Source of the DNA: a candidate division FCPU426 bacterium
GTDB lineage: Bacteria > Oederibacteriota > Muellerivitia > Muellerivitales > Muellerivitaceae
Direction of reading: 5' to 3'
Assembly (NCBI GenBank): GCA_963738405.1
Contig: CAVTWJ010000010.1
Location: forward strand, 32,001 to 96,000
Length of the DNA stretch: 64,000 nucleotides
Under the pieces are notes generated by a model. That model made no database searches. It was not told the DNA's origin and saw only the letters and a program-made list of their open reading frames with translations. Shown here in pieces: positions 31,085 through 49,441 of this stretch. Both the position numbers and the translations under genes were made by a program. The first letter of the stretch is position 1. Every line of letters starts with the position of its first letter.

Positions 31085-34000
31085 ATGAAAGTTCGCCATT
31101 GGGCGCTTTTATCTTTTGGTATCGTTTTTATTTTCGCGGCCTTCATCGGCTGCAATAACCGCTCGGCCTCGCCGGTTGCTCCTACACGAAACGCCAACCT
31201 TAATGTAGCCGTTCCTAGAACCCAGGAACTCCAGGCCAGCCTTTTAAGCTCCACCAGCGACATCCTTCTTTACAAAGCTACCACCTCAGGTCAGGCCGTC
31301 ACAGGATCGGCGGGACCTTTCAATGACCAGACTGGTTCGGGCTCGATTAATTTTTCGGTGGATCTACCAAGTTCTGGGACTTGGCTTATGGCGGTGGAGC
31401 TTATTGCCGCTTCAAACCAACAGCCTTTGGCCTTAGGCGCAGCTCAGTTTGACGCTGGAAGCGTTTCGGGTGGTGTCACGCTCGACCTGGGGTCGGTATC
31501 CAGAAATTGTTATCAAACTGATACTTGGATGGATCCGCTTGGGTCTTCTTTTTCCTTCTTGACTGATACACTTTTTACTTCGCTAAACTCGGGCGATATT
31601 AATATCGTCCCATTCGGCGCCGGTTATCAGATTCAGGCGGTTGCCCCTGCTCGGATCGAATATCTTGGTAATGGGCCGCTGGTTAATTTTGCCTCAGCTC
31701 CCGCGACTGAAACAAACACCGCTTCTTCTGTTTCGAAGATGACCGCTGGGGCCGCAGTTTCGATTCTGCAGTCGGGGGACGTTTACTGCGTTCTCTTATC
31801 AGGCGGTGGACACGCATGGATGCAGATCAGCAACCCCGGCAATGCCACAACAGGACCTTCTTTTCGTTTTCGGGTCAACGCGACACTTCCTTATTACGCC
31901 TATTATCAAACTTCTGCTGATATATCGGGCGTGTGTCTGACACCCCTGAACACCCCCACTTCCACCGCCACCTTCTCGCCGACTCCAACGATCACCCCCA
32001 CGGTGACCCCAACCCCCAGCTATACCCAGACGCCCCTGCCGACATCGACGCCTACCTCTACGAACTCGCCGACTTTAACCTCTTCGCCGACCGACACATG
32101 GACTGTGACCCCCACGCCTTCCATCACCGACACTCCCTCTTCGACTCCCACGCCGACGATTACGCCTTCTCCCTCGCCAACTAATAGCCCCATACCAACT
32201 TCCACCCCGACGGAAACCCTTACTTCCACGGCGACCAACACGCCAACCGTTACCGGGACTTCGACTTCGACCGTTTCGCCGACCTTTACCCTGACCAACA
32301 CGCTCACCTTTTCCTCGACGCAAACCTCAACATCGACCGCCACCGTTACGGGAACCGCCACGCTTACCCAAACACTTACTTCCACCCCGACGGGGTTATT
32401 TACCTCGACGATGACAAGTACCCCGACGAATACACCCACCTATACAGCCACCCCAACGACAACTTCGACTTCTACCTTCACTCAGACCAACACTCTGACC
32501 TCAACGTCGACCTCCACCGCGACAAGCCAATTCACCTTCACGCAGACATCGACTCCGACAAACACTCTATCCGCAACAACCACCGACACCTTAACGAGCA
32601 CTTTGACAGCGACACCAACCGATACTTTGACGACCACAGCCACATTTACGCAAACTCAGACGCCTACTGCGACATTGACCAATACGGTAACGGCTATCGC
32701 GACCTCAACGTCCACTGCGACCCCGACGAACACCCTGACTGCGACGCCCACCGTTACATCGACGAACACAGCCACCGTTTCGCAGACTCAAACCGTTACG
32801 TCCACTTTAACCAATACGGCAACGGCTACTTCGACCTCAACGTCCACTGCGACCCCGACGAACACAGCCACATCCACTCCGACCCAAACACCTACTTCAA
32901 CGGCGACCGCTTCGGCGACAGATACCCCAACCTCCACACTCACAACGACTCCGACGGCCACCCCGACCTCAACATTAACCACAACTCCAACAAGCACGCC
33001 AACTTTCAGTTTTACGGCCACATCCACAACCAATGGCACCTCAACCCCAACTTTGACTCCTATTGCGGGAGTAATTGACATTACCAACAATATCGATGGC
33101 GCCCCGGTTCCTGGCATCACCACCGGTGGACAGGATAATTACAGCCAAACGGTCACCTTCTGGAATGGGACTTCGAGCTTATCCTCCAGCTATGACAACT
33201 ATTCCAGTAGCGGTGCCGCAACCGCCCTCTATGGCCAGGGCGCTCCTGACCAGGCCTACCAGTTCACGCTGGCTTCTCCTAAAAATCTCTTCGTCAACCT
33301 TTGCGGCGCGAACTACGACTCGGTCCTATACCTTCGGAAGACGCTGAATGACCCGAATTCGCTGGTCGCCATTAACGACGATTCCGATTTCTGCGCCACA
33401 ACCTCTTCCAGCCTCGTAACGGGAACCCTACCGGCGGGCACGTACTACCTGATCGTGGATGGTTTCGCGGCGGGCTACCATGGCTCTTACTCCTTAACCC
33501 TCTCCACCTTCGCTCCCCCCTGCCAGTTGACGCCTCTTTCTTCACCCGTTACCAGCAACCAGCAGGTCAATACGGCGGATACCAGCAATTTCACCAACCC
33601 GGTCGTTTTAGGCTCGGTTGGGGCCGGATCGGACCTGGTAGGGGCCGGCACGGTCAATTACTTCACCAATTTCGCCAATACCTGGGCCTTCACGCCTTCC
33701 ATGACCGGGGCCTACCAGATTTCGTTGGATTGTTTCGACGATGGAACGGGCAAGGCGAGGGTAGGTTATGACCTTCTTGAATCCGATGGAGAGGGCGGAG
33801 TTTCCTTTGTCGATGTCTCCCTCGACGGTGATCCGTTAGACTCGTTGATCGAAAATCTGACTGCGGGAAATACCTATTACATCGCCGTTTACGCCTGGAA
33901 TGAAGGCGCTCCTGACGCCGATTACCACCTGATCATCAAGGGTTTGGGCAGTACGGCCACGCCCACGATCACGCCCACCGCTTCTTCAACACCCACAGAG

Positions 34001-37000
34001 ACCATCACTCCTTCCGCTACCTCGATTCCGACCGCCCAGAGCCCAGTCACCCTCAATATTTCCGGCGGCGGAGCCACGGTCACGGGCAATACCATTGGCA
34101 TGGCGGACAGTTATAACCAGCCGGTGAGCCTCTGGAATAGTATCGGAGGCGTTACCTACGATTACGGCGCGGGAGCGCCGGACACTGCCTACGCTGTCAA
34201 CGTCACGAACCCGGAAAGCCTCTTCATCAACCTTTGCGGGGCACAGTTTGACTCTGTTGTTTATGTAAGGTTTGGTTCACCCACGGGTCCGACCGTCTCC
34301 GTGAACGACGATTCGGACTACTGCAACAGCCCCTCTTCCAGCCTGGTGACCGGAACCCTGGTGCCGGGGATCTACTACATTATCGTGGATGGATTCGGTC
34401 CCGGAAGCTATGGGCCCTTTACCCTGGCTGTTTCCACCTTTAACCCCGTTTGCGGCCTGCCCACCCAAACCCTGCCGACGCCGGTTGTGAACCCGCAATC
34501 CGGTGATAGCGCGGATGACGTCAATTTCACCAATCCGGTGGATCTGGGTGTGGCTTTAAGCGGGGGCGATGTGGTGGGGTCGGGCAACGTGAATTATTAC
34601 TTCAACCATGTGCAAACCTGGAGTTTCGCGGTATCGCAGTACGGTAACTATACGGTCTCCCTGGATTGTTTTGATGACGGAACGGGCAAGGCTAGGGCGG
34701 GCTTTGACCTGCTTCAAAACAATGAGGGTTCCATCTCCTTTTTGCAGGCTTCGAACGATAACGATCCCTTGGACCAGGTGACCTATTACCTTATCCCTGG
34801 AGTCACTTATTACGTCGCGGTTTACGCTTTCGGTGAGGGGGCTCCCAGCGCGGATTATCACCTCTTGGTCACGCCCCAGGGCGGCGCCCCGGTCATCCAG
34901 GATGTCAGTTCTATCATCGGAACCGGGAACGCAATTTCGGGCAGTACGGAAGGTGCAAACGACAACAATAACCAGCCCGATTCATCCGGAACTCCCTGGG
35001 GCCAATACGGGCCGGATGTGACCTACCAGTTCGTGCCCCCGCAGACGGGCGAGTATTTCATCAATATGTGTAATGTCAATTTCGACTCGGTTCTTTATTT
35101 ACGAACCAACCCGACCGATCCAGCCTCGGTTGTGGATTTGGATACCTTCGGGAATTATTGCGACAACGGGCAGGGCACCGCGATCGCCACGGGAGTCCTG
35201 AACCAGGGGGTCACCTATTACCTGATCGTGGATGGAAATGATGAAGCGGGGAACTATTCCTTCACCATTGCGCCTTTCACTCCCCAGTGCGTCCTGACGC
35301 CTGTTTCCACTCCCGTCACTTTCACGGGACCGGCCAATACCTCCTTCAACCCAGACTTGGCCAACGCGCGGGACTTAGGCGATTTGAGCGCCGCGGGCCA
35401 GGACGCGACGGGGGTAGGCAACGTCAATTACGAATACAACGGCACCAATACTTGGCAGTTTGAGGTCACGGTTCCCAACCAGGTCTTCAATCTTTCCACG
35501 GATTGCTTTGATGACGGAACTGGAAAGAATTTGACGGATGTGGGCATTTGGAGCAACAGCGATGGGCTTCAATTCATCGCGGGTCAGTCGCAATATTCCC
35601 CGATCAACCAAGCCTCCGTCACTTTATCGACGGGAACCTATTACATCACCGTTGAATCGGACAATGACGGGGAGGACGGCAATTACCGCCTGGTGGTCCA
35701 GAACGTCACGGGGTTAAACACTCCCACCGTCACCCAAACCCCGACCGTTACGCCGACGGCCACCCCCGCAGGCGTTCCCGACGTCAGTTACGCAATCGGG
35801 CAGGGAACCGTCATCTCAGGCAATACGGCGGGCGGGACGGACCATTACAACCAAAACCTCACCAACGGCTTTAACGGTGCGGTGGATTACGGCGCCGGCG
35901 CCCCCGATGTGGCTTATCAATTCGTGGCGCCTCAAACCGGCGAGTATGTCATCGACATGTGCAACGCGGGTTTCAGCGCGGTTCTTTACCTGCGGACCAG
36001 CCTTACCGATCCGGCTTCCATGACCGATTTAAGTAATCAGTCTGATTATTGTTATAACGTGGGTTCCGGTTCTGGATATTACGCGTCGATCACGACAAGC
36101 ACCCTGACCCAAGGTGTGACCTATTACCTGATCGTGGATGGTTATGGAAGCGGCGATTACGGGAATTACGGTTTTACCATCGCCCCATTTACACCTGTTT
36201 GCTATCTCAACACGGTTTCCACCCCGGTTACTTATACAGGCTTGCCGAATGATAACGACGGCTATGAGCAAATGACCGACTCGGACGCTTCTGCCGCCGT
36301 AAATCTGGGCACGGTGACCACCGACGCAGTTGGGGTGGGAACCCTGAACTGGGCGCTCAACGGCACGGAGGTCTGGCAGTTCACCGCATCCGTGAGCGGC
36401 AATTATGCCATTTCCACGGATTGTTTCGACGACGGCACGGGACAGGACTACGCCGACCTTTATCTTTGGACCTACCAAGACGGGCTGACCGAAACCAATT
36501 ATTCTTACAACTATCCGCTGAATCAAATGGTGGTCTATTTAAACGCAGGCCAGACCTATTACGCGGAAGTCCAACCCGATTACGACGGCCAGGATGGGAA
36601 TTACCGATTAGTCGTTCAAAATCTCACGGGTTTTAATACCCCGACGCCACTCGATACGCCCACCCCTATGCCTTCTCCCACGCCCACCCCCTCAAGCTTC
36701 CGGGTCATCCCGGCGAGTTACAGCGGATATACCGACAGCCAAGGCAATTATTGGAATGGAGGGGCCGACAGCGACATACCTGGCTATTCAGGTCCAGGTG
36801 GATTTTCGAATGACAATAACATCCCGATTTTTGGCACCAAAGACCCGACACTTTATGACGACTATTACGACAATGGACCGGCGGCTCAAAACTACGTTTT
36901 TAACGTGGCTCCGGGTACCTACCAAACCACCCTCAAATTCACGGATCTCAGCGGGACTGCGGTAGGTGCAAGGGAATTCAATGTCTTTATCAACGGGTCG

Positions 37001-40000
37001 AAAGTAATAAGCAACCTGGACATTTATTCCGAGGTCGGCGGAAATGCAGCAGACGACAAGGTTTTCAATAATGTAATCCCGGTGTTCAACCCATCGGCCT
37101 TGGCCTATCAAATTCAGGTCCAGGTGGGGCCGGCCAATTCCGGTGCGCCGGTTATCGGTGCCATCCAAATTTTGCCGCAGTCTCAAACCATCGCTACACC
37201 CACCCCGACCCCGACCCGCGGACCCTCATCCACTTGGCGCGTCATCGCCGGCGGTGCCTCACCCTATATGACGCTGCCTTACACTGACAGTCATGGTAAA
37301 TCCTGGATCGGTGACACCGATTACCAGGGAGGTATCTTTCAGGCTTCCACCAATCCTGGATCCATATCGGGCACCAATGACCAAATCCTTTATCAAAACA
37401 CCCGCATGGGCAACATGATTAACGATACCTATTACCAACCCTTCAGCTACAGCTTCCCGGTACCGCAGGGTAACTACCAAGTCACCTTGAAATTCGCTGA
37501 AACTCAATACACTTATGTGGGCGGGCGGGTGTTCAATGTTTCCATCAATGGAAACCAAGCCGTCACAAACTTGGATGTTTATTCTGAGGTGGGAGAGAAC
37601 GCCGCGGACGATAAGATCGTCAATAACGTCACGCCGGACGGTACCGGCCATATCAAGATTAGTTTTGGCCCGACTAGTTCCTCGAGTAATAGCAACCAGG
37701 TCATGGTGAGCGCCATCCAGATTGTTCCCGAAGCGGGCGGGTTCTTCCCAACAGCTACCCTCACTCAGACCCAAACACCTACCCCGACGATCACCCCCAG
37801 TCCGACCCCCACTTCCACGCCTTCGGGACCCGCGGCTTTAGATATTTCAGGTGGAGGTGTCACTTTAACCGGGCAGACCACATTGGGATTACCCGACATA
37901 TACAACGAACCCGCCACCGCTTGGCTGGGGGCGAGTGGATACGCCAACTATAACTATGGGGTGGGCGCTCCGGATAAGCTCTATACCTTTACAGTGGGCT
38001 CGGGCCAAGCCGGGCAATTCTTCAATATCAATATTTGTGACGCGAACTTTGATTCGGTGCTGGCCCTGCACTCCGGGTCTCCTGCGGGGCCCACGGTGGC
38101 CTTGAATGACGACTCGGATTTCTGCGGGGGTACTTCCTCCAGCCTGGTAACAGGTCCCCTTGCCGCCGGAACCTATTACCTAATTGTGGATGGATTCCAG
38201 GCGGGTGACGCGGGCGCCTATACCCTGAAGATTTCCACTTTCACCACCACCTGTTCCTTAAGCCCCACCTCGACACCCGTCGTTTCAAATCAAACAAGCG
38301 GGGTGACAGTGGATGACACCACCTTTACCAACCCCGTTACCCTGACCACGCCATTGACCTCCGGAAATGATTTGACGGGTTTGGGGGTCGTCAACAACTA
38401 CCTTAACCATGTAAATACCTGGATGTTTACCCAGGCTTCAAGCGGCTCCTGCACGATATCGTTGGATTGTTTCGATAATGGAACCGCCTTGGGTAATTCC
38501 CGGGTTGGGTTTGACGTTTACGATGCCTATGACGACCTGATCGGGTCTTCGGCGGATGGGGATCCCTTGGATCAATTGGTCCTGGATCTTAACCCCGGCA
38601 ACTATTATGTCGCCGTTTATGCCTGGGATTACGGCGCGCCTAACGCCAACTACCGACTGGTGATCCAGGATGGGCCCATTGCGACCGCAACCCCCACGCC
38701 TACGGTCACTCCTACTCTCACCCTAAATACGACATTCACCTCTACAGCAACAATAACATCGACCCTAATGGCAACTCCGATACCCAGTTTTAGCCCTACC
38801 CCAGGAGTGCCCGCCGACATTACCTCTGCTATCAACGGTGCCCCGGTCGCGGGCGATACCACGGGCCTAGAGGATGATTATAGCCAGCCGGTGAGCTATT
38901 GGAACGGTACGGATACCTCTACCCAATACCTCGGCGCGGGCGCGCCGGATATCGCCTACCAATTCAGCATAGATGCCGGCCATGCCGGGGAAAGCCTCTT
39001 TATCAACATTTGCGGGGCTTCTTTTGATTCCGTGCTTTATTTACGTTCAGGATCGCCGACTGGCCCCTTGGTTGCGGTGGATGACGACTCGGAATATTGC
39101 GGGGCTTCCTCGAACAACGGTCTTTCCTCAAGCTTCGTGACCGGTCCCTTGTCTGCGGGCACCTATTACCTAATCGTGGACGGCTACCAATCGGGCGATT
39201 ACGGTCAATTCAGCTTGAACCTTTCCACCTACAATCCCCCTTGTTCCTTGAACCCGACTTCCACGCCCATTCCCAACGCCGAGCCCAGCCAAGACGATAA
39301 CGGGTTCAGCCAAGCCACGAACTTGGGCACGGTTTCCATCGGTACTGATACGGTAGGGTCGGGTGCTTTAGGCTATTTCACTAACCACGTAGATACCTGG
39401 CATTTCCACGCAGGAACGGATGGCGGCAACTATACCCTTTCGCTGGATTGTTTCGACGATGGGAATAACAAGGCTCGGTTTGGTTTCGACCTTTATCGGT
39501 TGATAAAAACCAACTCTTATAACTCAGTTCCCCTCTCCTTGGTTGCCTCTTCCACGGACGGAGACCCCTTGGATCAGCTGGTCGAGACTCTCCCTGCGGG
39601 CGATTATTACGTCGCTGTTTACGCCAATGATGAAAACGCCCCCAGCGGCAATTACCATCTGGTAGTCCAAGGCGGCCCTGTGGCTTCGCCCACCCCCACC
39701 ATAACCTTTACCCCCACCTATACGGAAACGCCGGGCGGGGTTATTCAAGACATCAGCTCCATCATTTCATCGGGCGTCACCATCACGGGCGATACGACCA
39801 ATGACGTGAATAACTACACCCAGGCGGTCACCCAATATGACGGCTCCAGCCCCTATGTTTTCAACACCGGTTTGGGCCCTGATGCCATGTATCAGTTTGT
39901 GCCTCCCTCGACCGGGGAATATTTCATCAACCTGTGCAACGCCAGTTTTGACTCGGTGATTTACTTGAGGACTAATCCAACGGATAGTTCCTCAACCATC

Positions 40001-43000
40001 GACCTGGACCAGTATTCCGAATACTGCAGTACCACTGGCTCCTCTATTGCGACGGGCACCCTGACGCAAGGAGTGACCTATTACCTGATCGTGGACGGCC
40101 TCAACAGCTATGATTATGGAACCTACAGCCTGTCCATCTCCCATTTCACGCCTCTGTGCACTTTAAGCCCCACTTCCACACCCGTCCTTTATACGGCGCC
40201 AGCGAATATTACCTATTATCCCGACTATGCCAACGCGGTTGATTTGGGAACGGTCTCGACGGGCGGGGACGCGGTGGGAACAGGCAACGCGAACTACAAC
40301 TTCAATTACACGAATACCTGGAAATTCACGGTTGGAACCAACGGCGGAACCTATGCCTTCTCTGCGGATTGTTTTGACGACGGTACGGGCAAAAACTACG
40401 AAGACATTACGGTTTATGACGGTAATCCCGAGGATTTGAACAGTCCTATTGCCCAATCTTATTACCAGACGCCCTTAAACCAACTGGAGATACAGAATCT
40501 CCCGGCGGGAACCTACTATATCGCCGTTCAATCCGATGATGACGGCCAGGACGGGAACTATCGCTTGGCGGTCCAAGGGTTGCAGGCATTAACCATCACG
40601 CCAACGCCGACCATTACGCCGTCGCCTACGGATAGTCCGACCGATTCTCCTACCGTCATTTCAACTGAAACTTTAACGGTCACACCTGCCAACTCAGTTA
40701 CGGTTTGGCGGGAAACGACGGGCTACCTCGCGGCTTCCTTGACCGATCACCTGGGTAATGTTTGGACACCGGATACGACAGTGGGTAATTACAGCCCATT
40801 AGGCGGCAGCACCTATCTAGGTGGAGTTGTATTTGGAACACCGGATTCCACCCTTTATCAAAACCCCCGTTTTGCCAGCCCCACTTTGACCTATTCCTTC
40901 CCGATTGAGCCAGGCTCATACCAGGTGACCCTTAAATTTGCCGAGGAAAACCCCACCTATTGGGCAGTGGGGGCGAGGGTGTTCAATGTGTCCGTTATCG
41001 GAAGTTCGACCCAGACTCTATCTAATCTTGACGTATTTGCTGAAGTGGGAGGCCAAGCACCCGATGACAAGGTCTTTGACAGCGTTTCTCCGGATGCGAG
41101 CGGGAACATCACGGTTCTATTGGGCGGTGGGACCAACTTCCCCATGATTTCCGCCATTCAAATCATTCCCCAGGGCTCTGCCGTTACGCCGACCCCGACG
41201 CCCCTATTAACCCCTTCCGCCAATTGGAGGATCATCGCCGGGGCCAGCCCCTACAGCCAACTATCAGGGACCAATCTAAAACTTCCCTATATTGATTCCC
41301 ATGGCAAGCCTTGGATGGGCGACGCTGGATTTAGCGGCGGCGAGGGGCTTGGCTCCGGCGCCTATTTTGCCTCAAGTGACTTAACCCTTTATTCATTCGA
41401 AAGGGTGGGTTATGGCGTTCCCTTCAGCTACACCTTCCCTGTTCCGACGGGACAGCAGTACCAGTTGGATCTGAAATTCATGGACTACTACCATAATGCC
41501 GATGAAAACGTGGTCGTGAACGGAGTCACGGTTCTATCGAATTTCCAACCGGGTAATGTTGGCGGCTACAGCTTCAACACCCCCATCGACCAGGTTTTCA
41601 ATAACATTTCACCCGTCGGTGGAAACATCCAAATCCAATTCTTCCCGGTATATCCCGACTATTACCCCAATTATCCGGTGGAGGTGAACGCCATCCAGAT
41701 TATTCCCCAGCCGGTTCTGATTTCGCCCACTGTAACGCCTACCTGGACGATCACGCCCAGCCCCACCAATACTCCCAATCCATCGGTAACAACCACCCCC
41801 ACCTCCACTGCTACCATTTCATCGGGGATACCCATGGTGCTTGTGGATGGGGCCCCCGTGAGTGGAACAACCGCCGGTGGAACGGATAGCTATAGCCAAC
41901 CTGCCAGCCTTTGGGACAGTTCCAACGGGGTCACCTATAACTATGGCGCGGGCGCTCCGGACTCGGTTTACCAGTTCCATTTGAACTCGGCCCAGAGCGT
42001 TTTCATTAATCTTTGCGGGGCGGCTTTTGATTCTGTGGTTTACGTTCGTACCAACCCCAATGATCCCTCCACCACCATGGCCTTGGACGATGATTCGGAA
42101 TTCTGCCACGGCACCTCTTCCAGTCTGGTGACGGGCACCCTTCAGCAGGGGACCTATTATGTGGTTGTGGATGGGTTTACGGCGGGTGATTTTGGAACCT
42201 ATTCCTTAAGCTTATCCAGCTTCAATCCAATCTGCACCCTAACGCCTATTTCCACACCAGTGGTCAACTGGCAAACCAATAATTCGGCCGACGATTCCTA
42301 TTTCTCAAATACTGTCAACTTGGGTTCGGTCACGAGCGGCCATGACCTGGTTGGGATGGGAACACTCAATTATTATCTAAACCACGTGAATACCTGGCAG
42401 TTCTCGGCTGGGACGGACGGCTCTAACTATACGATTTCGCTGGATTGCTTTGACGACGGAAATGGCAAGGCCCGGATGGGTTTTGACCTTTACCAGGCCG
42501 CTTACAATAGCTTCGACAGCATTTACTCTTACCAATTGATCGCATCTTCAAGCAACGGCGATCCCTTGGACCAGATCACCCAGAATCTCCCGGCCGGCAA
42601 TTATGTTGTTGCGGTTTATGCCATCGACGCGGAAGCCCCGAGCGGGGATTATCACTTGGTGGTCCAAGCCGGTGCGGCCCCCACGCCCCTGCCCACGGCT
42701 ACGGTCACTCCCACTCCCGTGGTGGTCAACCATTACCCCGACATCACCTCGTATATTGACAGCGGGAACCCCGTCACCGGCGACACGACTGGCCTGCCGG
42801 ACCACTACAACCAGGTTGTTATGGAAGCCTCTGAGGGCGGCGATGCGCATGCCGCTGGAAATACCAATGGCAGGCCAGTGACCTTTGGCGCGGGTTCACC
42901 GGATGTGGTTTACCAATTCACTCTCCACTCTGCGGAAAGCCTTCATATCAATGCCTGTCAAACCTATTACTTCAGCTCAGTTGTTTATATAAGGACGAAT

Positions 43001-45568
43001 CCGGATGACCCCAGCACCACGGTGGCTTTTGGAAATGATTACAACAACTGTGAGGAAGCGAATTTCGTAACCGGAACTCTTAAGCCGGGAACCTATTACT
43101 TGATACTGGATGGGGACGGATATTACGGTCAATATACCTTTTCGCTTTCAACCTTCCATCCCCTGTGCGCAGTCTCGCCTGTTCCTAATGTGACGCCCGT
43201 ACCGAATGTTACTCCTAGCGGCGACAGTACTTATTTCTCCAAACCCACCTATTTGGGAACGGTTTCCAGCGGTACGGGGGTCATTGGGCCTGGAACGCTT
43301 AATTACTACTTTAATCCAACCGAAACCTGGCATTTTAAGGCCGGGACCAACGGCGGAAACTACGCACTTTCCCTGGATTGTTACGATGATGGAACGAATC
43401 AGGTGGTGTTTGACTTTTCACTCTTTGACGCACTTCACAATCAGATTGGGCATTATCAAGGCGGTGGCGGCAGTTATCCCAACCAAGAATTCAGGACCCT
43501 GCCCGCGGGCGATTATTACGTGGCGGTCTCGGCTACGAATGAAAACTACCCCAGCGGAGACTATCACCTGATCATCCAGGGCGGCGCGGTCGCCACTCCG
43601 ACGGCAACTCCCACCCTGACGCCGACCCCCACCCCGACGCCTATCCCTGGAGGTCCCAAGGGGGCTTGGAGCGCGCCCGTAGGGTTTATCGCAGTGAACT
43701 CGGCTGGAACCACCGTTTACCTCTCCCACAATTTCGGGGTGGATAACCTTAATTTCGATAAATATGTGCGAGTTTACACATCCACCAGCGGTATCAATTA
43801 TTCCCAGTCCGCGTCATGGGGATACTTTGGCAGCACTTATGGCGGAACTTATAGTTCCTGGCAGGATCCCAATGGCCTTGCAGTCGATTCTTCTGGAAAC
43901 GTCCTTGTGGCAGACAATGACGTAATTCGTAAATACAATTCCAATGGTGTCGCGCTGGGTTCCGTGGGCAATGACGATGGTTATTACAATTACGGTGGAT
44001 ATTTCACCTTGGCGAGTGATGTGGCTTTGGACTCGTTTGGCAACATCTATGGTGCCCAGGACCGGACCAGCTACGGTACGGTGCAACTTTTCAATTCTTC
44101 GGGAATCTTTCAGGGAATTTTGGGCTCGTATCTGGCTTATGGACAGGTAGGGAATTTCGATTACCTGCCATCGGTGGCCGTGAACGCATCCGCCTCCTCT
44201 ACGATCGTTTACGAGGCGGCTTTGGGCGATTCTGTAATCAATGTTTACCAGGTAGTTCCGGGTTCTTCTTATAAAATCTTCAATTCTCTCGGCCAATGGG
44301 GGGCGGGAGCGGGTTCCTTTAGCGTCGGGTCCTTGGCTGTGGCTCCGGCAGGGAGCCCCTATGCCGGATTCCTTTACGTCTCAGACACCGCGAACAATCG
44401 GATGATGGAATTCGACCCTTACGGAAATTTCGTGGGCCAATGGGGCAGTTACGGAACCGCACCTGGAGAGTTCAACTACCCAGGTGGAGTTGCGGTGGAT
44501 GGCGCTGGCAATGTTTACGTGGCGGATGTTAATAACAACCGCTTCCAGAAATTCGCGCCACCTATACCTCAATCTATTATCCCGACACCGACTGGAACTC
44601 CGACAAATACTCCTACTGTCACCTCGACTCCTACCCCGTTTGGACTTCCAACAGCGACCACCACACCTTTGGTTTATAGTTCCGCGGTGTTTGAGAGCGG
44701 GCTTCCTTATCCGCAAGGAGTAGCGCTTGATTCCAGTTCGAATCTTTATGTCGTCAACGACCAGCCCAGTTCCGGGCAATATTACCTGAAAGTATTTTCG
44801 CAATTTGGATCATTGCTTAACTCTTGGCAGTCCTTTTCTTCCAGCTTCTTAGATTTCCCGGACGCAATCGCGGTTAATGGCGCGGGTACTTCCATTTTTG
44901 TGGGCGACAGTAGCGGAAGCAACGAGCTGTATCTTTTGAACAGCGGTGGAACCGTTGTGAATAGTACGGGGGGGTTCAGCTTTATCGGTGGTTTGGCTTT
45001 AGATGTCGCGGCTACCAATCTTTATGTAGCGGATGATTCGGCCCATAGCCTTAAACATATCAGCCTCAGCAATTCAACCACCGTAGCCTTTGGGACCTGG
45101 AACAATAGCCAGGGCTTGGGCTATATCCAGGCACCCATTGGAGTGGCGGTAGATAACAGCACCAACTGTAACGGCGGACCCTGTGTTTACTCGATCGATT
45201 ATGGAAACGAAAATGTTCAAAAATGGGACACCAGTGGAAACCCCATCACCTTTTGGGGTGGTCCGGACTTGAACTACAAGAACTCGAGCTCGGGAAATGG
45301 AATGTTTTACGCCCCCTCCGCCATCGCGGTGGATGCCAATACGAGCTGTAACGGAGTGCCCGGACCCTGTGTCTATGTCTCGGATAACGGCAACCCGAAT
45401 AATTACCATTGGATCGAGATATTCGATTCCAATGGCGGCTTCATACAACAAATCTCAACTAGTTATTATCCGCAGGGGTTGGTGGCACTGCCTAATGCGA
45501 CGGGTTTGCCCGGTGCGTTCTATGTGGCTGATTTTGGCGATGGAGCGATTTATAAATACACGCCTTGA
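31085..45568 (+). CDS. giant multidomain surface lipoprotein/adhesin (~4,827 aa)
   Basis: Uninterrupted 14.5-kb ORF; GGGGAG RBS before ATG 31085; lipobox-like FIGC; Thr/Pro stalk, PPC-like repeats, malectin-like domains, NHL repeats. Confidence 0.9.
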   Translation: MKVRHWALLSFGIVFIFAAFIGCNNRSASPVAPTRNANLNVAVPRTQELQASLLSSTSDILLYKATTSGQAVTGSAGPFNDQTGSGSINFSVDLPSSGTWLMAVELIAASNQQPLALGAAQFDAGSVSGGVTLDLGSVSRNCYQTDTWMDPLGSSFSFLTDTLFTSLNSGDINIVPFGAGYQIQAVAPARIEYLGNGPLVNFASAPATETNTASSVSKMTAGAAVSILQSGDVYCVLLSGGGHAWMQISNPGNATTGPSFRFRVNATLPYYAYYQTSADISGVCLTPLNTPTSTATFSPTPTITPTVTPTPSYTQTPLPTSTPTSTNSPTLTSSPTDTWTVTPTPSITDTPSSTPTPTITPSPSPTNSPIPTSTPTETLTSTATNTPTVTGTSTSTVSPTFTLTNTLTFSSTQTSTSTATVTGTATLTQTLTSTPTGLFTSTMTSTPTNTPTYTATPTTTSTSTFTQTNTLTSTSTSTATSQFTFTQTSTPTNTLSATTTDTLTSTLTATPTDTLTTTATFTQTQTPTATLTNTVTAIATSTSTATPTNTLTATPTVTSTNTATVSQTQTVTSTLTNTATATSTSTSTATPTNTATSTPTQTPTSTATASATDTPTSTLTTTPTATPTSTLTTTPTSTPTFSFTATSTTNGTSTPTLTPIAGVIDITNNIDGAPVPGITTGGQDNYSQTVTFWNGTSSLSSSYDNYSSSGAATALYGQGAPDQAYQFTLASPKNLFVNLCGANYDSVLYLRKTLNDPNSLVAINDDSDFCATTSSSLVTGTLPAGTYYLIVDGFAAGYHGSYSLTLSTFAPPCQLTPLSSPVTSNQQVNTADTSNFTNPVVLGSVGAGSDLVGAGTVNYFTNFANTWAFTPSMTGAYQISLDCFDDGTGKARVGYDLLESDGEGGVSFVDVSLDGDPLDSLIENLTAGNTYYIAVYAWNEGAPDADYHLIIKGLGSTATPTITPTASSTPTETITPSATSIPTAQSPVTLNISGGGATVTGNTIGMADSYNQPVSLWNSIGGVTYDYGAGAPDTAYAVNVTNPESLFINLCGAQFDSVVYVRFGSPTGPTVSVNDDSDYCNSPSSSLVTGTLVPGIYYIIVDGFGPGSYGPFTLAVSTFNPVCGLPTQTLPTPVVNPQSGDSADDVNFTNPVDLGVALSGGDVVGSGNVNYYFNHVQTWSFAVSQYGNYTVSLDCFDDGTGKARAGFDLLQNNEGSISFLQASNDNDPLDQVTYYLIPGVTYYVAVYAFGEGAPSADYHLLVTPQGGAPVIQDVSSIIGTGNAISGSTEGANDNNNQPDSSGTPWGQYGPDVTYQFVPPQTGEYFINMCNVNFDSVLYLRTNPTDPASVVDLDTFGNYCDNGQGTAIATGVLNQGVTYYLIVDGNDEAGNYSFTIAPFTPQCVLTPVSTPVTFTGPANTSFNPDLANARDLGDLSAAGQDATGVGNVNYEYNGTNTWQFEVTVPNQVFNLSTDCFDDGTGKNLTDVGIWSNSDGLQFIAGQSQYSPINQASVTLSTGTYYITVESDNDGEDGNYRLVVQNVTGLNTPTVTQTPTVTPTATPAGVPDVSYAIGQGTVISGNTAGGTDHYNQNLTNGFNGAVDYGAGAPDVAYQFVAPQTGEYVIDMCNAGFSAVLYLRTSLTDPASMTDLSNQSDYCYNVGSGSGYYASITTSTLTQGVTYYLIVDGYGSGDYGNYGFTIAPFTPVCYLNTVSTPVTYTGLPNDNDGYEQMTDSDASAAVNLGTVTTDAVGVGTLNWALNGTEVWQFTASVSGNYAISTDCFDDGTGQDYADLYLWTYQDGLTETNYSYNYPLNQMVVYLNAGQTYYAEVQPDYDGQDGNYRLVVQNLTGFNTPTPLDTPTPMPSPTPTPSSFRVIPASYSGYTDSQGNYWNGGADSDIPGYSGPGGFSNDNNIPIFGTKDPTLYDDYYDNGPAAQNYVFNVAPGTYQTTLKFTDLSGTAVGAREFNVFINGSKVISNLDIYSEVGGNAADDKVFNNVIPVFNPSALAYQIQVQVGPANSGAPVIGAIQILPQSQTIATPTPTPTRGPSSTWRVIAGGASPYMTLPYTDSHGKSWIGDTDYQGGIFQASTNPGSISGTNDQILYQNTRMGNMINDTYYQPFSYSFPVPQGNYQVTLKFAETQYTYVGGRVFNVSINGNQAVTNLDVYSEVGENAADDKIVNNVTPDGTGHIKISFGPTSSSSNSNQVMVSAIQIVPEAGGFFPTATLTQTQTPTPTITPSPTPTSTPSGPAALDISGGGVTLTGQTTLGLPDIYNEPATAWLGASGYANYNYGVGAPDKLYTFTVGSGQAGQFFNINICDANFDSVLALHSGSPAGPTVALNDDSDFCGGTSSSLVTGPLAAGTYYLIVDGFQAGDAGAYTLKISTFTTTCSLSPTSTPVVSNQTSGVTVDDTTFTNPVTLTTPLTSGNDLTGLGVVNNYLNHVNTWMFTQASSGSCTISLDCFDNGTALGNSRVGFDVYDAYDDLIGSSADGDPLDQLVLDLNPGNYYVAVYAWDYGAPNANYRLVIQDGPIATATPTPTVTPTLTLNTTFTSTATITSTLMATPIPSFSPTPGVPADITSAINGAPVAGDTTGLEDDYSQPVSYWNGTDTSTQYLGAGAPDIAYQFSIDAGHAGESLFINICGASFDSVLYLRSGSPTGPLVAVDDDSEYCGASSNNGLSSSFVTGPLSAGTYYLIVDGYQSGDYGQFSLNLSTYNPPCSLNPTSTPIPNAEPSQDDNGFSQATNLGTVSIGTDTVGSGALGYFTNHVDTWHFHAGTDGGNYTLSLDCFDDGNNKARFGFDLYRLIKTNSYNSVPLSLVASSTDGDPLDQLVETLPAGDYYVAVYANDENAPSGNYHLVVQGGPVASPTPTITFTPTYTETPGGVIQDISSIISSGVTITGDTTNDVNNYTQAVTQYDGSSPYVFNTGLGPDAMYQFVPPSTGEYFINLCNASFDSVIYLRTNPTDSSSTIDLDQYSEYCSTTGSSIATGTLTQGVTYYLIVDGLNSYDYGTYSLSISHFTPLCTLSPTSTPVLYTAPANITYYPDYANAVDLGTVSTGGDAVGTGNANYNFNYTNTWKFTVGTNGGTYAFSADCFDDGTGKNYEDITVYDGNPEDLNSPIAQSYYQTPLNQLEIQNLPAGTYYIAVQSDDDGQDGNYRLAVQGLQALTITPTPTITPSPTDSPTDSPTVISTETLTVTPANSVTVWRETTGYLAASLTDHLGNVWTPDTTVGNYSPLGGSTYLGGVVFGTPDSTLYQNPRFASPTLTYSFPIEPGSYQVTLKFAEENPTYWAVGARVFNVSVIGSSTQTLSNLDVFAEVGGQAPDDKVFDSVSPDASGNITVLLGGGTNFPMISAIQIIPQGSAVTPTPTPLLTPSANWRIIAGASPYSQLSGTNLKLPYIDSHGKPWMGDAGFSGGEGLGSGAYFASSDLTLYSFERVGYGVPFSYTFPVPTGQQYQLDLKFMDYYHNADENVVVNGVTVLSNFQPGNVGGYSFNTPIDQVFNNISPVGGNIQIQFFPVYPDYYPNYPVEVNAIQIIPQPVLISPTVTPTWTITPSPTNTPNPSVTTTPTSTATISSGIPMVLVDGAPVSGTTAGGTDSYSQPASLWDSSNGVTYNYGAGAPDSVYQFHLNSAQSVFINLCGAAFDSVVYVRTNPNDPSTTMALDDDSEFCHGTSSSLVTGTLQQGTYYVVVDGFTAGDFGTYSLSLSSFNPICTLTPISTPVVNWQTNNSADDSYFSNTVNLGSVTSGHDLVGMGTLNYYLNHVNTWQFSAGTDGSNYTISLDCFDDGNGKARMGFDLYQAAYNSFDSIYSYQLIASSSNGDPLDQITQNLPAGNYVVAVYAIDAEAPSGDYHLVVQAGAAPTPLPTATVTPTPVVVNHYPDITSYIDSGNPVTGDTTGLPDHYNQVVMEASEGGDAHAAGNTNGRPVTFGAGSPDVVYQFTLHSAESLHINACQTYYFSSVVYIRTNPDDPSTTVAFGNDYNNCEEANFVTGTLKPGTYYLILDGDGYYGQYTFSLSTFHPLCAVSPVPNVTPVPNVTPSGDSTYFSKPTYLGTVSSGTGVIGPGTLNYYFNPTETWHFKAGTNGGNYALSLDCYDDGTNQVVFDFSLFDALHNQIGHYQGGGGSYPNQEFRTLPAGDYYVAVSATNENYPSGDYHLIIQGGAVATPTATPTLTPTPTPTPIPGGPKGAWSAPVGFIAVNSAGTTVYLSHNFGVDNLNFDKYVRVYTSTSGINYSQSASWGYFGSTYGGTYSSWQDPNGLAVDSSGNVLVADNDVIRKYNSNGVALGSVGNDDGYYNYGGYFTLASDVALDSFGNIYGAQDRTSYGTVQLFNSSGIFQGILGSYLAYGQVGNFDYLPSVAVNASASSTIVYEAALGDSVINVYQVVPGSSYKIFNSLGQWGAGAGSFSVGSLAVAPAGSPYAGFLYVSDTANNRMMEFDPYGNFVGQWGSYGTAPGEFNYPGGVAVDGAGNVYVADVNNNRFQKFAPPIPQSIIPTPTGTPTNTPTVTSTPTPFGLPTATTTPLVYSSAVFESGLPYPQGVALDSSSNLYVVNDQPSSGQYYLKVFSQFGSLLNSWQSFSSSFLDFPDAIAVNGAGTSIFVGDSSGSNELYLLNSGGTVVNSTGGFSFIGGLALDVAATNLYVADDSAHSLKHISLSNSTTVAFGTWNNSQGLGYIQAPIGVAVDNSTNCNGGPCVYSIDYGNENVQKWDTSGNPITFWGGPDLNYKNSSSGNGMFYAPSAIAVDANTSCNGVPGPCVYVSDNGNPNNYHWIEIFDSNGGFIQQISTSYYPQGLVALPNATGLPGAFYVADFGDGAIYKYTP
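31940..33065 (+). repeat. Thr/Pro/Ser-rich low-complexity stalk (~375 aa)
   Basis: Continuous (TxT)n sequence; near-identical nucleotide blocks at 32678-32733 and 32810-32865. Confidence 0.9.
33070..43585 (+). repeat. nine ~280-290 aa bipartite repeats interleaved with two malectin-like pairs
   Basis: Each unit carries variants of APD..Y.F, FINLC...DSVLYLR, GTYYLIVDG and DC(F/Y)D(D/N)G; malectin-like pairs at ~36697-37735 and ~40697-41712 (Y.VTLKFAE...G.RVFNV). Confidence 0.88.
43660..45565 (+). repeat. NHL-repeat beta-propeller region (two blocks)
   Basis: FNYPGGVAVDGAGNVYVADVNNNRFQKF and related repeats. Confidence 0.85.
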
Positions 45569-45735: not shown

Positions 45736-46533
45736 ATGAATAGAATTTTGATTTTGACAATACTGATTCTGGTGCCGGTCGGACGACTTTGGGCCGTAAC
45801 GGAGGCCATCTTTACCTCTGTTACTGGTAAGATCGAGATCAGGGGCCACGCCGGCCACAAGCTCCGGATTGCCCAAAAAGACACTACCGTAGTTGAAGGC
45901 GAACGTATTGTCGCCGGCGCGGACGGTCAAGCGACCCTGCAAACCTTTGATGGGTCCCAATTGACAATCAGTCCCAATACCGATTTCTGGTTGGATAAAC
46001 TCCAACAACCTGATCCCAATAATAAGATTATTCAATTCAAAATGATGCTGGGCCAGCTCTTCGCCAAGGTCACCAAGCTGGTATCGGCCAAGTCCTCATT
46101 CGAAATCAACGCCGGGGGCGTCATCTGCGGCGTTCGGGGAACTCAATACCAGGTCAAATTTGATCCCACCACCAACACCGTTTATTTGGGAGTTGTGGAG
46201 GGAACTGTTTTCACCACCTCAAACGGTCAAACGACCGATTGGGGCGCCGGAAGCAGTGCGGTTTTCCACAACGGAACCCCTTTAGGTGGTGGCAACAATG
46301 GAATACCCGGCGGCAATAATGGAAATAAAGGTGATAACGGAAACAATGGTCAAGGAAATGGCCAGGGGGATAATGGTGACAACGGTTCCCTTGGCTCTCT
46401 CCAAGACCTAAACGATCAATTCGGCGGAAACAATAACTCTAACGGCAACACGACTCTTACCGATCCGTCGGTGGAGGGTTCCATAAGGATCAATATCACC
46501 GCCAATATTCCTACCCAGGAAAATACGAATTGA
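45736..46533 (+). CDS. FecR-domain periplasmic protein with Gly/Asn-rich tail
   Basis: Signal peptide; L.TFDGSQL.ISPNT, GVICGVRGTQY, V.EGTV FecR pattern. Confidence 0.85.
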   Translation: MNRILILTILILVPVGRLWAVTEAIFTSVTGKIEIRGHAGHKLRIAQKDTTVVEGERIVAGADGQATLQTFDGSQLTISPNTDFWLDKLQQPDPNNKIIQFKMMLGQLFAKVTKLVSAKSSFEINAGGVICGVRGTQYQVKFDPTTNTVYLGVVEGTVFTTSNGQTTDWGAGSSAVFHNGTPLGGGNNGIPGGNNGNKGDNGNNGQGNGQGDNGDNGSLGSLQDLNDQFGGNNNSNGNTTLTDPSVEGSIRINITANIPTQENTN

Positions 46534-46547
46534 AGGAGAAAAACATC

Positions 46548-47705
46548 ATGAAAAGTTTCTTTGCGGGACTTTCCCTCTTTTTACTCGTCCTTCCTGTCCA
46601 AGCCGGCCAATTCAGTATCGGAGCCATTTACGATGGTTGGAACAGCAACTATCTAACCCCATTGACCGGATTAAACACCAATCAGGGTTCTGAATTTTGG
46701 GTCCCCATGGCTTTAAATCTGAATTTGGAAAAGGGATTTCAGGTTTATGGGCAGGGGTCTTTCGCGACTGCCTCTTACATTTTTCCGCCCGATCAGTCGG
46801 GGGCTAATGAGACGCTGAATTTGACAAATCTGACGGACTCAGTTCTCGGAACCGAGATTCAGTTCAAAAGTTTCGGCTATTCTTCGCTCCTTAATGTCAG
46901 TATCAATCTGCCGACGGGCGACCCAACCTGGGAAACGAAACAGATTGTGGCTATTATTCCCACTGAGTTCATGGATTATCGCTACCGTGGTCGTGGGTTC
47001 GGTTTTAACGGCCTTTATGGGATCAGTTTCCCCATGGGAAAAAGTTCCATCGGTGCAGGTGTTGGTTACCTGCATTCGGGTTCCTTCGATGCGACCGGCG
47101 ATTCGACCGCACCCCTGCAATTGGGTGATACGATGTTTTTGGCTTTCAACTTTGTTCAGCCGGGAACCGGCGGGTACAAGGAAATCGCCCGGCTTTCGGG
47201 TTATTACTCCTTTACGACTCAAATCGCCGGGGTTAACGAGTTTCAGCTTGGGACCAATGTGAATGCCTCTTATAGTTGGATTAATCCCCATGCCCTATCC
47301 GTTGATTTGGGAGCTCAGTTTTTCCTTCCCTCTCAAAGATTGAGTACAGATAACGTTTTGACCACCGAATCCAATAATTACTACGCCCCGCGCTTTTACG
47401 TGGCTCCCAGTTATTCATTTGGAGATATCAACTTGTCCGCACAAGTGAAATATATCCTGCCCAATGATTATCCAGATACCTTTTCCGGTTCTGGCGTGAA
47501 TCCAATGTATTTCGGCGGAGGTTGGCTTTTTGGAATCGGCCCTTCCTGGAAAGCTGCCCTGGATGACAAGTCGAGCCTCAATTTCTATGGTGCCTACGAC
47601 TACATCGTTCAAAATAACGCCAATATTGATTCCACCGGAACCACCTTGGTTAACGCCACATACAATTATTGGATCATCGGCACGAACTACCAAATTAATC
47701 TCTAA
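46548..47705 (+). CDS. putative outer-membrane beta-barrel protein
   Basis: Signal peptide (VQA); amphipathic aromatic-rich strands; NLPTG; terminal strand WIIGTNYQINL. Confidence 0.65.
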   Translation: MKSFFAGLSLFLLVLPVQAGQFSIGAIYDGWNSNYLTPLTGLNTNQGSEFWVPMALNLNLEKGFQVYGQGSFATASYIFPPDQSGANETLNLTNLTDSVLGTEIQFKSFGYSSLLNVSINLPTGDPTWETKQIVAIIPTEFMDYRYRGRGFGFNGLYGISFPMGKSSIGAGVGYLHSGSFDATGDSTAPLQLGDTMFLAFNFVQPGTGGYKEIARLSGYYSFTTQIAGVNEFQLGTNVNASYSWINPHALSVDLGAQFFLPSQRLSTDNVLTTESNNYYAPRFYVAPSYSFGDINLSAQVKYILPNDYPDTFSGSGVNPMYFGGGWLFGIGPSWKAALDDKSSLNFYGAYDYIVQNNANIDSTGTTLVNATYNYWIIGTNYQINL

Positions 47706-47755: not shown

Positions 47756-48775
47756 ATGAAAATCGCATCGAATAAATTTTTTATCGCCTCGAGCCTGTTT
47801 TCAGTCCTGATTATGGTGATATGGGGCTGTAATGGTTCTCGTCCCTTGGCTCCCGCCCAAAATGTCAATTTGGGCATTTCTTTGGCGCCCTCCAAGGATC
47901 TTCAAGCCAGCTTGCTGGGAACAACTTCGAACACCCTTCTCTGGAACTATCAAATCAACGGCCAGTCTGGGGAGCATGGCCAGGCGGGTCCCTTTTCCTC
48001 CAATGTCGGCGCCGGAAACGTTAATTTCTCAGTGAATCTGCCTGCGGGCGGTAAAAAGATATTCTCCATCCAATTAAACGACGCCAATACTGGGCAGGAC
48101 CTGGCGGTTGGTTCTGCTCTGATTGATCTGACGAACCCAACAGCGAATATGTCGGTAACCATCGCCCTGGGATCGGTGGTTCGGGCCTGTTACACATTGA
48201 GCAATGCAGGGCTTTATAACTACTATGACTTGATTGACCATTTCATTCAGTACTATCCCCAGCAATCAGACCTGGAAGTGTATTACGGGGATACCAACTA
48301 CTCATTGTGGGACGCAAACTATAACGCCACGATCGCATACTTGGGCAATGGGAATCTGGTCGATTACGACTATGTTCCCTCGGATGATGTTTTTTCGTAT
48401 TATTCTATTGAAACCAAATATGAGGTCCTGAATCCTTCCAGCGCGAAACCCACTCCTGTGCCGACTTACGGTGGCGGTTCCGCTCGAAAAAGCACCAAAG
48501 CCAGCACGGGACAAAATTTAGATCTAGAAACTGGGGATGTCTATTGCATTAAGTTGACCAATCTTCCCGGGGATTATGCCTGGGTTCAGGTAACAGATTC
48601 CGGCAACCTCAATAATTCTGTCGGTCCCAGCTTTTGTTTCCGCATCAGCACCGATCCTTTCTATTCTTACTACCAGACCAGCGCGGACCTTCTTCAAAAT
48701 TGCTCATGGGGCGGTACTAGCGGCAGCGGCAGCGGCGGTACCAGTGGGGGTGGCGGAAGCGGCGGCGGCGGTTAA
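47756..48775 (+). CDS. lipoprotein paralogous to the N-terminal domain of the giant protein
   Basis: Lipobox-like IWGC; shared LQASLL, AGPF, NFSV.LP, LGSV.R.CY, YLGNG.LV, GDVYC, GPSF.FR, YYQTSAD; Gly-rich tail. Confidence 0.85.
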   Translation: MKIASNKFFIASSLFSVLIMVIWGCNGSRPLAPAQNVNLGISLAPSKDLQASLLGTTSNTLLWNYQINGQSGEHGQAGPFSSNVGAGNVNFSVNLPAGGKKIFSIQLNDANTGQDLAVGSALIDLTNPTANMSVTIALGSVVRACYTLSNAGLYNYYDLIDHFIQYYPQQSDLEVYYGDTNYSLWDANYNATIAYLGNGNLVDYDYVPSDDVFSYYSIETKYEVLNPSSAKPTPVPTYGGGSARKSTKASTGQNLDLETGDVYCIKLTNLPGDYAWVQVTDSGNLNNSVGPSFCFRISTDPFYSYYQTSADLLQNCSWGGTSGSGSGGTSGGGGSGGGG

Positions 48776-49369: not shown

Positions 49370-49441
49370 ATTTTTTCTTCAAGTATGAGACCCCCTGATG
49401 GAAAATGCTCTGAAGCAATACATGATCAAGGCGGAATTGCC

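Follow-up and report, generated by a model that had tools for sequence, protein, structure and literature searches.

The gene at positions 47756 to 48775 of a 64,000-nucleotide (nt) stretch of DNA from a candidate division FCPU426 bacterium (hereafter the window) encodes a small putative lipoprotein of a rare and previously unrecognised family. A second copy of its domain forms the N-terminus of a giant protein encoded in the same window, and genes of the family recur directly after genes for a secreted FecR-domain protein and a predicted outer-membrane beta-barrel, in most places with a CHASE2-domain cyclase gene alongside. We tentatively propose, as a reading that falls somewhat short of probable, that an envelope-spanning sensor feeds the CHASE2 cyclase and has the small protein as its core lipoprotein subunit in the outer membrane; the function suggested in this way rests on gene order and analogy. 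What is new here is the lipoprotein family and the barrel family, envelope-spanning sensing itself being already known, and no description of the lipoprotein family or of the FecR-barrel-lipoprotein triad was found in the literature available to search.

The gene order was compared across seven places, namely the window and six loci (L001 to L006) from five metagenome-assembled genomes (MAGs), obtained in one scan of genome contigs. Profile searches of open reading frames (ORFs) together with Pfam place a FecR-domain gene, a barrel gene and a family lipoprotein gene in this order in six of the seven, in agreement with the first-pass annotation, which had tied the domain to barrel and FecR neighbours. 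The lipoprotein is of the stand-alone form in the window, L001, L002, L003, and L005; in L004 it is an NHL-fused family member that follows a fusion of tetratricopeptide repeats (TPR) to a barrel, and in L006 the contig edge falls inside the family gene. Six FecR-barrel pairs have a stand-alone barrel gene, and in five of them (the exception being a second pair in L004) the two genes have a 4-nt overlap; a gap of 10–51 nt separates the barrel gene from the lipoprotein gene in the five loci with the stand-alone form. Orthologues of the window's CHASE2 cyclase are adjacent in five of the seven places (window, L001, L003, L004, and L006). In the window the order, all on the plus strand, is CHASE2-cyclase-TPR, giant, FecR-domain protein, barrel, small lipoprotein, MarC, and NAD kinase. 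The minimal locus, L003, consists of cyclase, FecR, barrel, and small lipoprotein genes, with no fused copy within 20.9 kb, and because the small form is kept there it looks like a core component and not a derivative of the giant. A fused gene stands between the cyclase and FecR genes in the window and in L001 and is absent from that position in L003, and thus behaves as an insertion. Five further cases in which a barrel match and a lipoprotein match have equal "longest contig" values (2332, 150225, 64228, 31701, and 10287) suggest additional barrel/lipoprotein pairs that share contigs.

The relationship between the two window proteins is clear at the sequence level and goes far past anything chance would give. 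BLASTP against the first 338 amino acids (aa) of the giant (31085–32100) aligns the small protein with the first ~290 aa at 105/318 identities (33%), 52% positives, 142 bits, and an E-value of 4e-44, which bears out the collinear similarity reported in the first-pass annotation, and the motif pairs quoted there are all in register (LQASLLGTTS/LQASLLSSTS, AGPF, NFSVNLP/NFSVDLP, LGSVVRACY/LGSVSRNCY, YLGNGNLV/YLGNGPLV, GDVYC, GPSFCFR/GPSFRFR, and YYQTSAD). A 309-position profile of the family alignment (A1) matches the small protein over its full length and from its N-terminus at E 1.7e-119, and matches the giant at E 1.4e-94 over 31085–31942 (envelope aa 26–311 of the stop-to-stop ORF starting at 31010). 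Applied to every six-frame ORF of 80 aa or more, the same profile finds exactly two copies of the domain in the window. The conserved cysteines noted earlier correspond to Cys25, Cys145, and Cys316 of A1, of which Cys145 is invariant (26 sequences) and the other two are at least 90% conserved; members also share the AYLGNG and AW.Q motifs. A disulfide between Cys145 and Cys316 is predicted.

The claim that the domain is unrecognised likewise held. The small protein matches no Pfam and no NCBIfam family at E ≤ 1, the first 338 aa of the giant match no Pfam family at E ≤ 1 and a single NCBIfam family at E 0.7, and the best match of the A1 profile among PDB sequences has an E-value of 0.53. An identity with DUF4136 was rejected because Pfam returned no DUF4136 match to the small protein at E ≤ 1. 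A word-index search retrieved 28 proteins including the query, nearly all of them 229–367 aa long and unnamed or "hypothetical," and only one longer form, P0029. The homologues come from many uncultured bacteria. An exhaustive search of 1.84 billion representative sequences with the A1 profile found 133 at E ≤ 0.001, 86 of them at E ≤ 1e-30. The family is therefore rare, and the word-index search undercounts its fused forms, since the exhaustive search found many. Wherever one of the 133 representatives has its N-terminus intact, the domain lies there, as expected of the N-terminal module that the first-pass annotation had described.

Family members are likely lipoproteins, a putative assignment that follows from the conservation of the cysteine and from the fit to a lipobox. 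A hydrophobic-core signal peptide precedes the conserved Cys25, as in signal peptidase II substrates, and this cysteine fits the "anchor" part of the earlier description. Under a strict rule of the PROSITE type (six uncharged positions, then [LIVMFWSTAG]x2-[LIVMFYSTAGCQ]-[AGS]-C), 34 of 82 complete members have a lipobox, a figure that rises to 66 of 82 if tryptophan is allowed at position -2. Half of these pattern-matching members (33/66), the window protein with its I-W-G-C among them, have that tryptophan, and in the N-terminal stretches of the 16 members outside the pattern a cysteine after [GASN] still follows a hydrophobic stretch. The WGC sequence (Trp at -2; window 47819–47830) is a hallmark of the family, and a P..[P/S] motif occurs within 13 aa after the lipid cysteine in 60 of the 66 pattern-matching members. 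These two features may represent a lineage-specific sorting or tether signal.

The domain occurs both alone and at the base of longer proteins. When a protein is counted as fused if at least 60 aa are attached to the domain, the 82 complete members divide into 54 stand-alone and 28 fused proteins, most of the latter with a Thr/Pro-rich linker after the domain. Pfam was used to scan 38 long proteins for passengers (P0028, P0029, and those of at least 454 aa from the profile search, with several N-terminal fragments among them). NHL/SGL beta-propellers were found in 21, leucine-rich repeats (LRR) in four, Kelch repeats in one, a PPC domain only in one, and a sub-threshold Rax2 match in one, and the remaining ten, including P0123 (3,942 aa) and P0137 (2,301 aa), had no Pfam match. 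Among the loci, a 1,589-aa homologue in L001 carries LRRs and a 558-aa homologue in L004 carries NHL repeats. The giant itself continues, at the point where the small protein stops, as a Thr/Pro-rich stalk, and has Malectin domains in four stretches (E 1.5e-56) and NHL repeats (E 9.7e-10). This stalk, rich in Thr, Ser, and Pro, extends over several hundred residues, and the giant has many repeated modules without a Pfam match. The idea of swappable C-terminal passengers is supported by these NHL/SGL, LRR, Kelch, and PPC heads. Near the loci there are also probable lipoproteins without the family domain (L002:2236–3135 on the plus strand, L002:7861–9465 on the minus strand, and L005:5974–7038 on the plus strand). 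Each has a proline-containing tether after its cysteine, the stretch shown of both L002 proteins includes a Thr/Pro linker, and the heads are a Kelch propeller (533 aa in L002 and 355 aa in L005) or a small domain of no known type (300 aa in L002).

A quick IQ-TREE phylogeny of 90 domain sequences, midpoint-rooted and with support from the Shimodaira–Hasegawa-like approximate likelihood ratio test (SH-aLRT) only, separates the two forms. The label "alone" or "fused" changes only four to five times over the 90 rows, compared with a mean of 26 when labels are shuffled, and none of 500 shuffles gave a value as low. The clade of the small protein has ten members, all stand-alone (support 100), and that of the giant's domain has 19 (support 97), of which 18 are fused and one is cut by a contig end. 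Within the latter, a six-row clade around the giant (support 100) holds proteins with LRR (the L001 protein, P0108, and P0109), NHL (P0029 and P0112), and Malectin plus NHL heads (the window's giant), and heads have been exchanged on closely related base domains. The giant's domain is 72% identical to that of the L001 LRR protein, and the small protein is 66% identical to the L001 small protein. Because the two window copies fall into separate supported clades, each with its own L001 orthologue, they are old paralogues with separate orthologues.

This history bears directly on the suggestion that the small protein is a decay product, that is, a recent truncated duplicate of the 5' end of the giant gene whose Gly/Ser tail is a remnant of the stalk. 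The small protein does stop where the giant's linker starts, and its tail is of low complexity and linker-like. However, the identity between the two copies is only 33%, L001 holds a closer orthologue of each, their clades are separate and strongly supported, and the stand-alone form is the majority state, with 34 of the 54 stand-alone members ending in an aromatic residue (24 W, 9 Y, and 1 F). A recent truncated copy of the giant is rejected on the tree, which contradicts it, and decay of this kind is extremely improbable.

The first-pass annotation had also placed a "bare Gly/Ser linker" at the end of the small protein. After the last conserved Cys-x-Trp (Cys-Ser-Trp), the protein terminates with GGTSGSGSGGTSGGGGSGGGG (aa 319–339), a tail that is disordered in the predicted model, so the description holds for this protein; it does not extend to the family. 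Gly-rich tails, 13–21 aa long, are confined to the window protein and the three relatives nearest to it (P0002 to P0004), and in P0007 and P0012 the tail is Thr/Pro-rich and 28 aa long. Owing to this restriction to the nearest relatives, the Gly/Ser tail is best regarded as a fast-evolving trait of one sub-clade and not a property of the family. The only tandem repeat in the tail DNA is (AGCGGC)x3 at 48719–48736.

An AlphaFold2 model built on A1 is all-beta and moderately confident, with a predicted local distance difference test score (pLDDT) of 73.2 and a predicted template modelling score of 0.70. It comprises an N-terminal beta-sandwich with long strands at ~aa 36–140 and a second beta-rich part at ~aa 150–312. 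The insertion at ~aa 225–255 is Pro/Lys/Ser-rich, has pLDDT values below 50 at aa 236–251, is found in only some A1 rows, and is absent from the giant's copy. A single PDB match passed E ≤ 0.001 in Foldseek, to 3r4r, a "fimbrial assembly protein" of Parabacteroides (E 9.2e-4 over 312 columns), and this match is weak, with template modelling scores (TM) of 0.20/0.24 and a root mean square deviation (rmsd) of 13.6. Stronger local matches of 111–138 columns are to generic sandwiches, namely the pilotins ExsB and AspS, the starch-binding domain CBM20, and DUF1812, and we assign these by inference to the N-terminal sandwich. Matches in BFVD were to small sandwich proteins only, and the second sub-domain has no convincing structural relative among PDB or BFVD structures searched with Foldseek. 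In the ESM Atlas the lipoprotein retrieved only PEGA clusters at 0.76, under the level that shuffled proteins attain. Of the two checks proposed in the first-pass annotation, the profile search yielded a family of 133 representatives with variable passengers, and the Foldseek comparison gave only weak or generic fold matches.

The structural matches invite two further explanations. By the first, the small protein would be a pilotin-like assembly factor, a periplasm-facing accessory that aids the folding, targeting, or gating of the barrel and has no sensing role of its own. Its gene adjoins the barrel gene, and Foldseek aligns ~121 columns with ExsB (2yjl, TM 0.58 by target) and AspS (5wec, TM 0.63) with a probability of 1.00. 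The E-values of these matches are only ~1e-3, though, and the fold is generic, since the same part is matched equally well by CBM20 (1cqy, TM 0.65) and by carboxypeptidase-regulatory-like sandwiches. No secretin was found among the locus ORFs scanned with Pfam, and an assembly factor would be an unexpected base for head-bearing paralogues of 600–4,800 aa. We consider this explanation unlikely.

By the second, the small protein would be a lipoprotein pilin of type V (FimA/Mfa) that forms the shaft of a fibre, with the head-bearing paralogue as its tip adhesin. Type V pilins are likewise made as lipoprotein precursors with two beta-rich parts, 3r4r is the sole PDB match that passes the Foldseek threshold, and the next matches are to Bacteroides fimbrial or adhesin-like lipoproteins and Mfa3 (4gpv, 5cag, 3up6, and 5nf4). 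These long alignments nevertheless have TM scores of 0.20–0.24, rmsd values of 13–17 Å, and probabilities of 0.38–0.75, the match to Mfa3 itself (5nf4) being weak at E 7.2e-3 and TM 0.23. Type V pilins require a maturation cut at an arginine or lysine after the lipid cysteine, and the A1 columns contain no conserved Arg/Lys between Cys25 and the first conserved strand. In addition, the FecR/barrel/cyclase context is unlike that of fimbrial operons, and relatives are labelled Firestonebacteria, "Proteobacteria" MAGs, and the like, not Bacteroidota. A pilin is thus very unlikely, and neither the "polymer subunit" nor the "decoy" proposed in the first-pass annotation found any supporting evidence, the small form being the majority state of the family.

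The window barrel matches no Pfam or NCBIfam family at E ≤ 1, five further barrels have no Pfam match at E ≤ 0.01, and all 59 homologues are unnamed or "hypothetical." Its AlphaFold2 model is a confidently predicted beta-barrel (pLDDT 88.5), for which Foldseek lists FadL, AlgE, MOMP, and porins with E-values down to 1.2e-10 and query-normalised TM scores of 0.34–0.50 among the matches listed. On this modelling evidence, the 391-aa protein is predicted to be an outer-membrane barrel of no defined family. In the ESM Atlas its nearest clusters are unnamed proteins of ~380 aa at 0.98, and PF13557 is present on 16% of the members of one cluster, which serves as a lead only. The most conserved stretch of the barrel family lies at window 46893–46997 (~residues 116–150 of P0030) and reads N..NLPTGDPTWE...P..F....Y.GRG; in the AlphaFold2 model it falls within a long inter-strand connection that holds the only helix of the mature protein.

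The FecR domain (PF04773) is matched in seven locus proteins at E-values from 1e-11 to 2e-14. In the window and L001 to L005, alignment A3 gives these proteins a common build of a signal peptide, the FecR domain, a Gly/Asn-rich linker of variable length, and a conserved C-terminal motif of ~25 aa (consensus FTDPSVGGS..IN..AN...E.VP). This motif looks like a tethered docking peptide. In L004 there are two FecR-barrel pairs, one on each side of the cyclase gene, and one barrel homologue there (L004:3540–5060) carries TPR at aa 70–137 (Pfam) ahead of the barrel profile match at aa 147–518 (E 3e-134), the NHL-fused family lipoprotein following directly after.

The close association of barrel and lipoprotein genes could also be read in terms of export and display. 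The barrel would then be a dedicated translocon or socket, comparable to Slam/type 11 or LptD-LptE, that brings family lipoproteins to the surface, with the N-terminal domain as a recognition or plug module, the small protein as a headless surface cargo or plug, and the cyclase as a neighbour or regulator. In Slam proteins a TPR region is N-terminal to the barrel, and the L004 barrel homologue has the same layout. The lipoprotein gene comes directly after the barrel gene in six of the seven places, the Thr/Pro stalks and the carbohydrate- or protein-binding heads imply extracellular exposure, and the triad stands without a cyclase in L002 and L005. Against this, the barrel has no match to DUF560 or to any other Pfam family at E ≤ 1. 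Slam cargo is recognised via a C-terminal barrel domain, unlike the shared domain here, which is N-terminal. Finally, export leaves no role for the FecR-domain protein, although its gene overlaps the barrel gene in five of the six stand-alone pairs. We regard an export function as rather unlikely, and it overlaps with the sensor reading and is not exclusive of it.

We hypothesize that the sensor works as follows. The small protein would be lipid-anchored in the outer membrane and would associate with the barrel and the secreted FecR-domain protein to make up, at the outer membrane, one end of a relay across the envelope. The FecR-domain protein could bridge to the periplasmic CHASE2 domain, and the output of the relay would be cyclic AMP (cAMP). 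The head-bearing paralogue may act as a variable antenna or adhesin that docks via the shared domain, and the small paralogue as a constant base or co-receptor that is able to act alone, as in L003. The Gly/Ser tail would not be central to the protein but a flexible, fast-evolving appendage in one sub-clade. A more ambitious form of this proposal is doubtful in our estimation. It holds that the FecR-barrel-lipoprotein triad is a previously undescribed outer-membrane receptor complex that supplies the input to CHASE2 proteins, the small lipoprotein being the co-receptor and its paralogue bearing interchangeable NHL, LRR, Kelch, or malectin ectodomains, so that the binding of an external macromolecule would be converted into a cAMP signal. 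If this is true, bacteria would have in the triad a counterpart to modular receptor and co-receptor pairs.

Several observations weigh against a sensor that feeds the CHASE2 cyclase. First, the neighbourhood counts come from a small sample of seven places. Second, no CHASE2 cyclase was found within the stretches examined of L002 and L005, and the triads there may therefore serve other outputs or act alone; conversely, the second FecR-barrel pair of L004 has no family member after it. Third, the neighbouring lipoproteins with Kelch heads and Thr/Pro linkers lack the family domain, and the domain is therefore not required merely to carry a head. Fourth, the lipobox of the window protein is atypical, as it fits the relaxed rule only and fails the strict one, and the small lipoprotein could face either the periplasm or the surface. 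Finally, promoter and terminator scans gave nothing above shuffled sequences.

The features of the window discussed here are collected in Table 1. The sequence AGGAG, a Shine-Dalgarno element by sequence reading, lies 8 nt 5' of the ATG of the small lipoprotein gene. The system occupies the same chromosomal slot in several MAGs (window, L003, L004, and L006), with a pair of ABC-2 permease genes on the upstream side of the cyclase and MarC and NAD kinase genes downstream (window 26337–27985 and 48788–50350).

Table 1. Positions of the small lipoprotein gene, its parts, and the associated genes in the window.
Feature	Coordinates	Strand	Evidence
Stand-alone gene of the putative lipoprotein family, 339 aa, ATG start	47756..48775	+	ORF listing
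Putative signal peptide with lipobox-like end I-W-G-C (Cys25)	47756..47830	+	Cys25 at least 90% conserved in A1
Conserved family domain, aa 26–318	47831..48709	+	AlphaFold2 model and conserved A1 columns
Insertion, ~aa 225–255, clade-specific, mostly disordered	48428..48520	+	Gap in BLASTP against the giant's copy
Gly/Ser tail, 21 aa (aa 319–339), disordered	48710..48772	+	pLDDT < 50
Paralogous domain copy at the N-terminus of the giant	31085..31942	+	BLASTP and A1 profile; fused clade of the tree
Giant putative lipoprotein, 4,848 aa: family domain, Thr/Pro stalk, repeated modules, four Malectin, C-terminal NHL	31085..45568	+	ORF and Pfam
Membrane sensor with CHASE2, class III adenylate/guanylate cyclase, and TPR parts, 746 aa	28633..30873	+	PF05226 E 1.7e-57; PF00211 E 1.9e-30
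Secreted FecR-domain protein, 265 aa	45736..46533	+	PF04773 E 2.5e-11; alignment A3 of seven homologues
Predicted outer-membrane beta-barrel, 391 aa (database form starts at 46548)	46530..47705	+	AlphaFold2 and Foldseek; no curated family

The ligands of CHASE2 domains are described as still unknown in the available text of PMC5192318, and the only worked CHASE2 example requires an outer-membrane barrel (NsrA). The compact, conserved four-gene set of CHASE2 cyclase, barrel, FecR-domain protein, and lipoprotein family is a concrete candidate for the missing outer-membrane input. The new lipoprotein domain is also of interest as the putative anchor of surface proteins of very large size in bacteria that are uncultured and little known, and the small paralogue would provide a handle for rebuilding the system if it proves to be the barrel's constant partner.

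Several known systems invite comparison. Type V pilins, like the fimbrial-like lipoproteins of Bacteroides, start out as lipoprotein precursors built of two beta-sandwich-like parts, and these proteins give the best whole-length, though weak, Foldseek matches; they differ in that TM does not exceed 0.24, no conserved cleavage site is present here, and the gene context and taxa are other ones. The secretin pilotins ExsB and AspS match part of the fold (TM 0.58–0.63 by target), with no secretin among the scanned locus ORFs. LptD-LptE and RcsF-OmpA are barrel-lipoprotein pairs, and together with Slam/type 11 they share with the present system a barrel gene next to the gene of a lipoprotein partner. 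The likeness to Slam extends to a TPR region on one of the seven barrels (L004:3540–5060), the window barrel being without TPR, and the differences are that there is no DUF560 match here and that the module shared by the lipoproteins is N-terminal.

Clusters in which FecR-domain genes accompany CHASE2 sensors are described, in the available parts of the sources, for Burkholderia (PMC5192318) and for Campylobacterota (PMC9239204); where PMC8195603 mentions CHASE2, the context is a different one. The Campylobacterota cAMP cluster includes a TPR protein and has FecR-domain and CHASE2 genes side by side (PMC9239204). In the Burkholderia "BiofilmReg" operon a DUF4136 lipoprotein is the small product of the last gene, of unknown function, and the output is a histidine kinase (PMC5192318). 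As far as the available text of these two sources goes, both clusters are without a ~390-aa barrel and without a lipoprotein of the present family.

FecA-FecR-FecI signalling also combines an outer-membrane barrel with a periplasmic FecR domain (PF04773) in an envelope-crossing relay, and a contact between the FecR domain and FecA, an outer-membrane protein, is stated for Escherichia coli in the accessible part of PMC5498481. Unlike FecA, the barrel here has no Pfam match to a TonB-dependent receptor, plug, or STN domain, and unlike FecR, the FecR-domain protein here is a small secreted protein and not a membrane anti-sigma factor. Pfam scans of the window's neighbouring ORFs turned up no extracytoplasmic function (ECF) sigma factor; the adjacent output gene is instead a CHASE2 cyclase, and the lipoprotein would be a third, constant partner.

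The NsrA-CyaD1/CyaD2/CyaK pathway of Sinorhizobium meliloti likewise joins an inner-membrane CHASE2 class III cyclase to an outer-membrane beta-barrel. The available text of two reports states that the CHASE2 cyclases perceive an external protein signal via the barrel protein NsrA (PMC13001267; PMC7529298), and that of a third ties the FecR-domain protein SMc02177 to the NsrA/cyclase pathway (PMC5498481). NsrA has ~1,200 aa with its barrel at residues 600–1200 (PMC7529298, as far as available), compared with a 391-aa barrel here, a comparison by size and description only, and no lipoprotein partner is described for the NsrA pathway. By analogy, then, the system of the window would work most like FecA-FecR cell-surface signalling and the NsrA-CHASE2 pathway, though it is apparently a member of neither.

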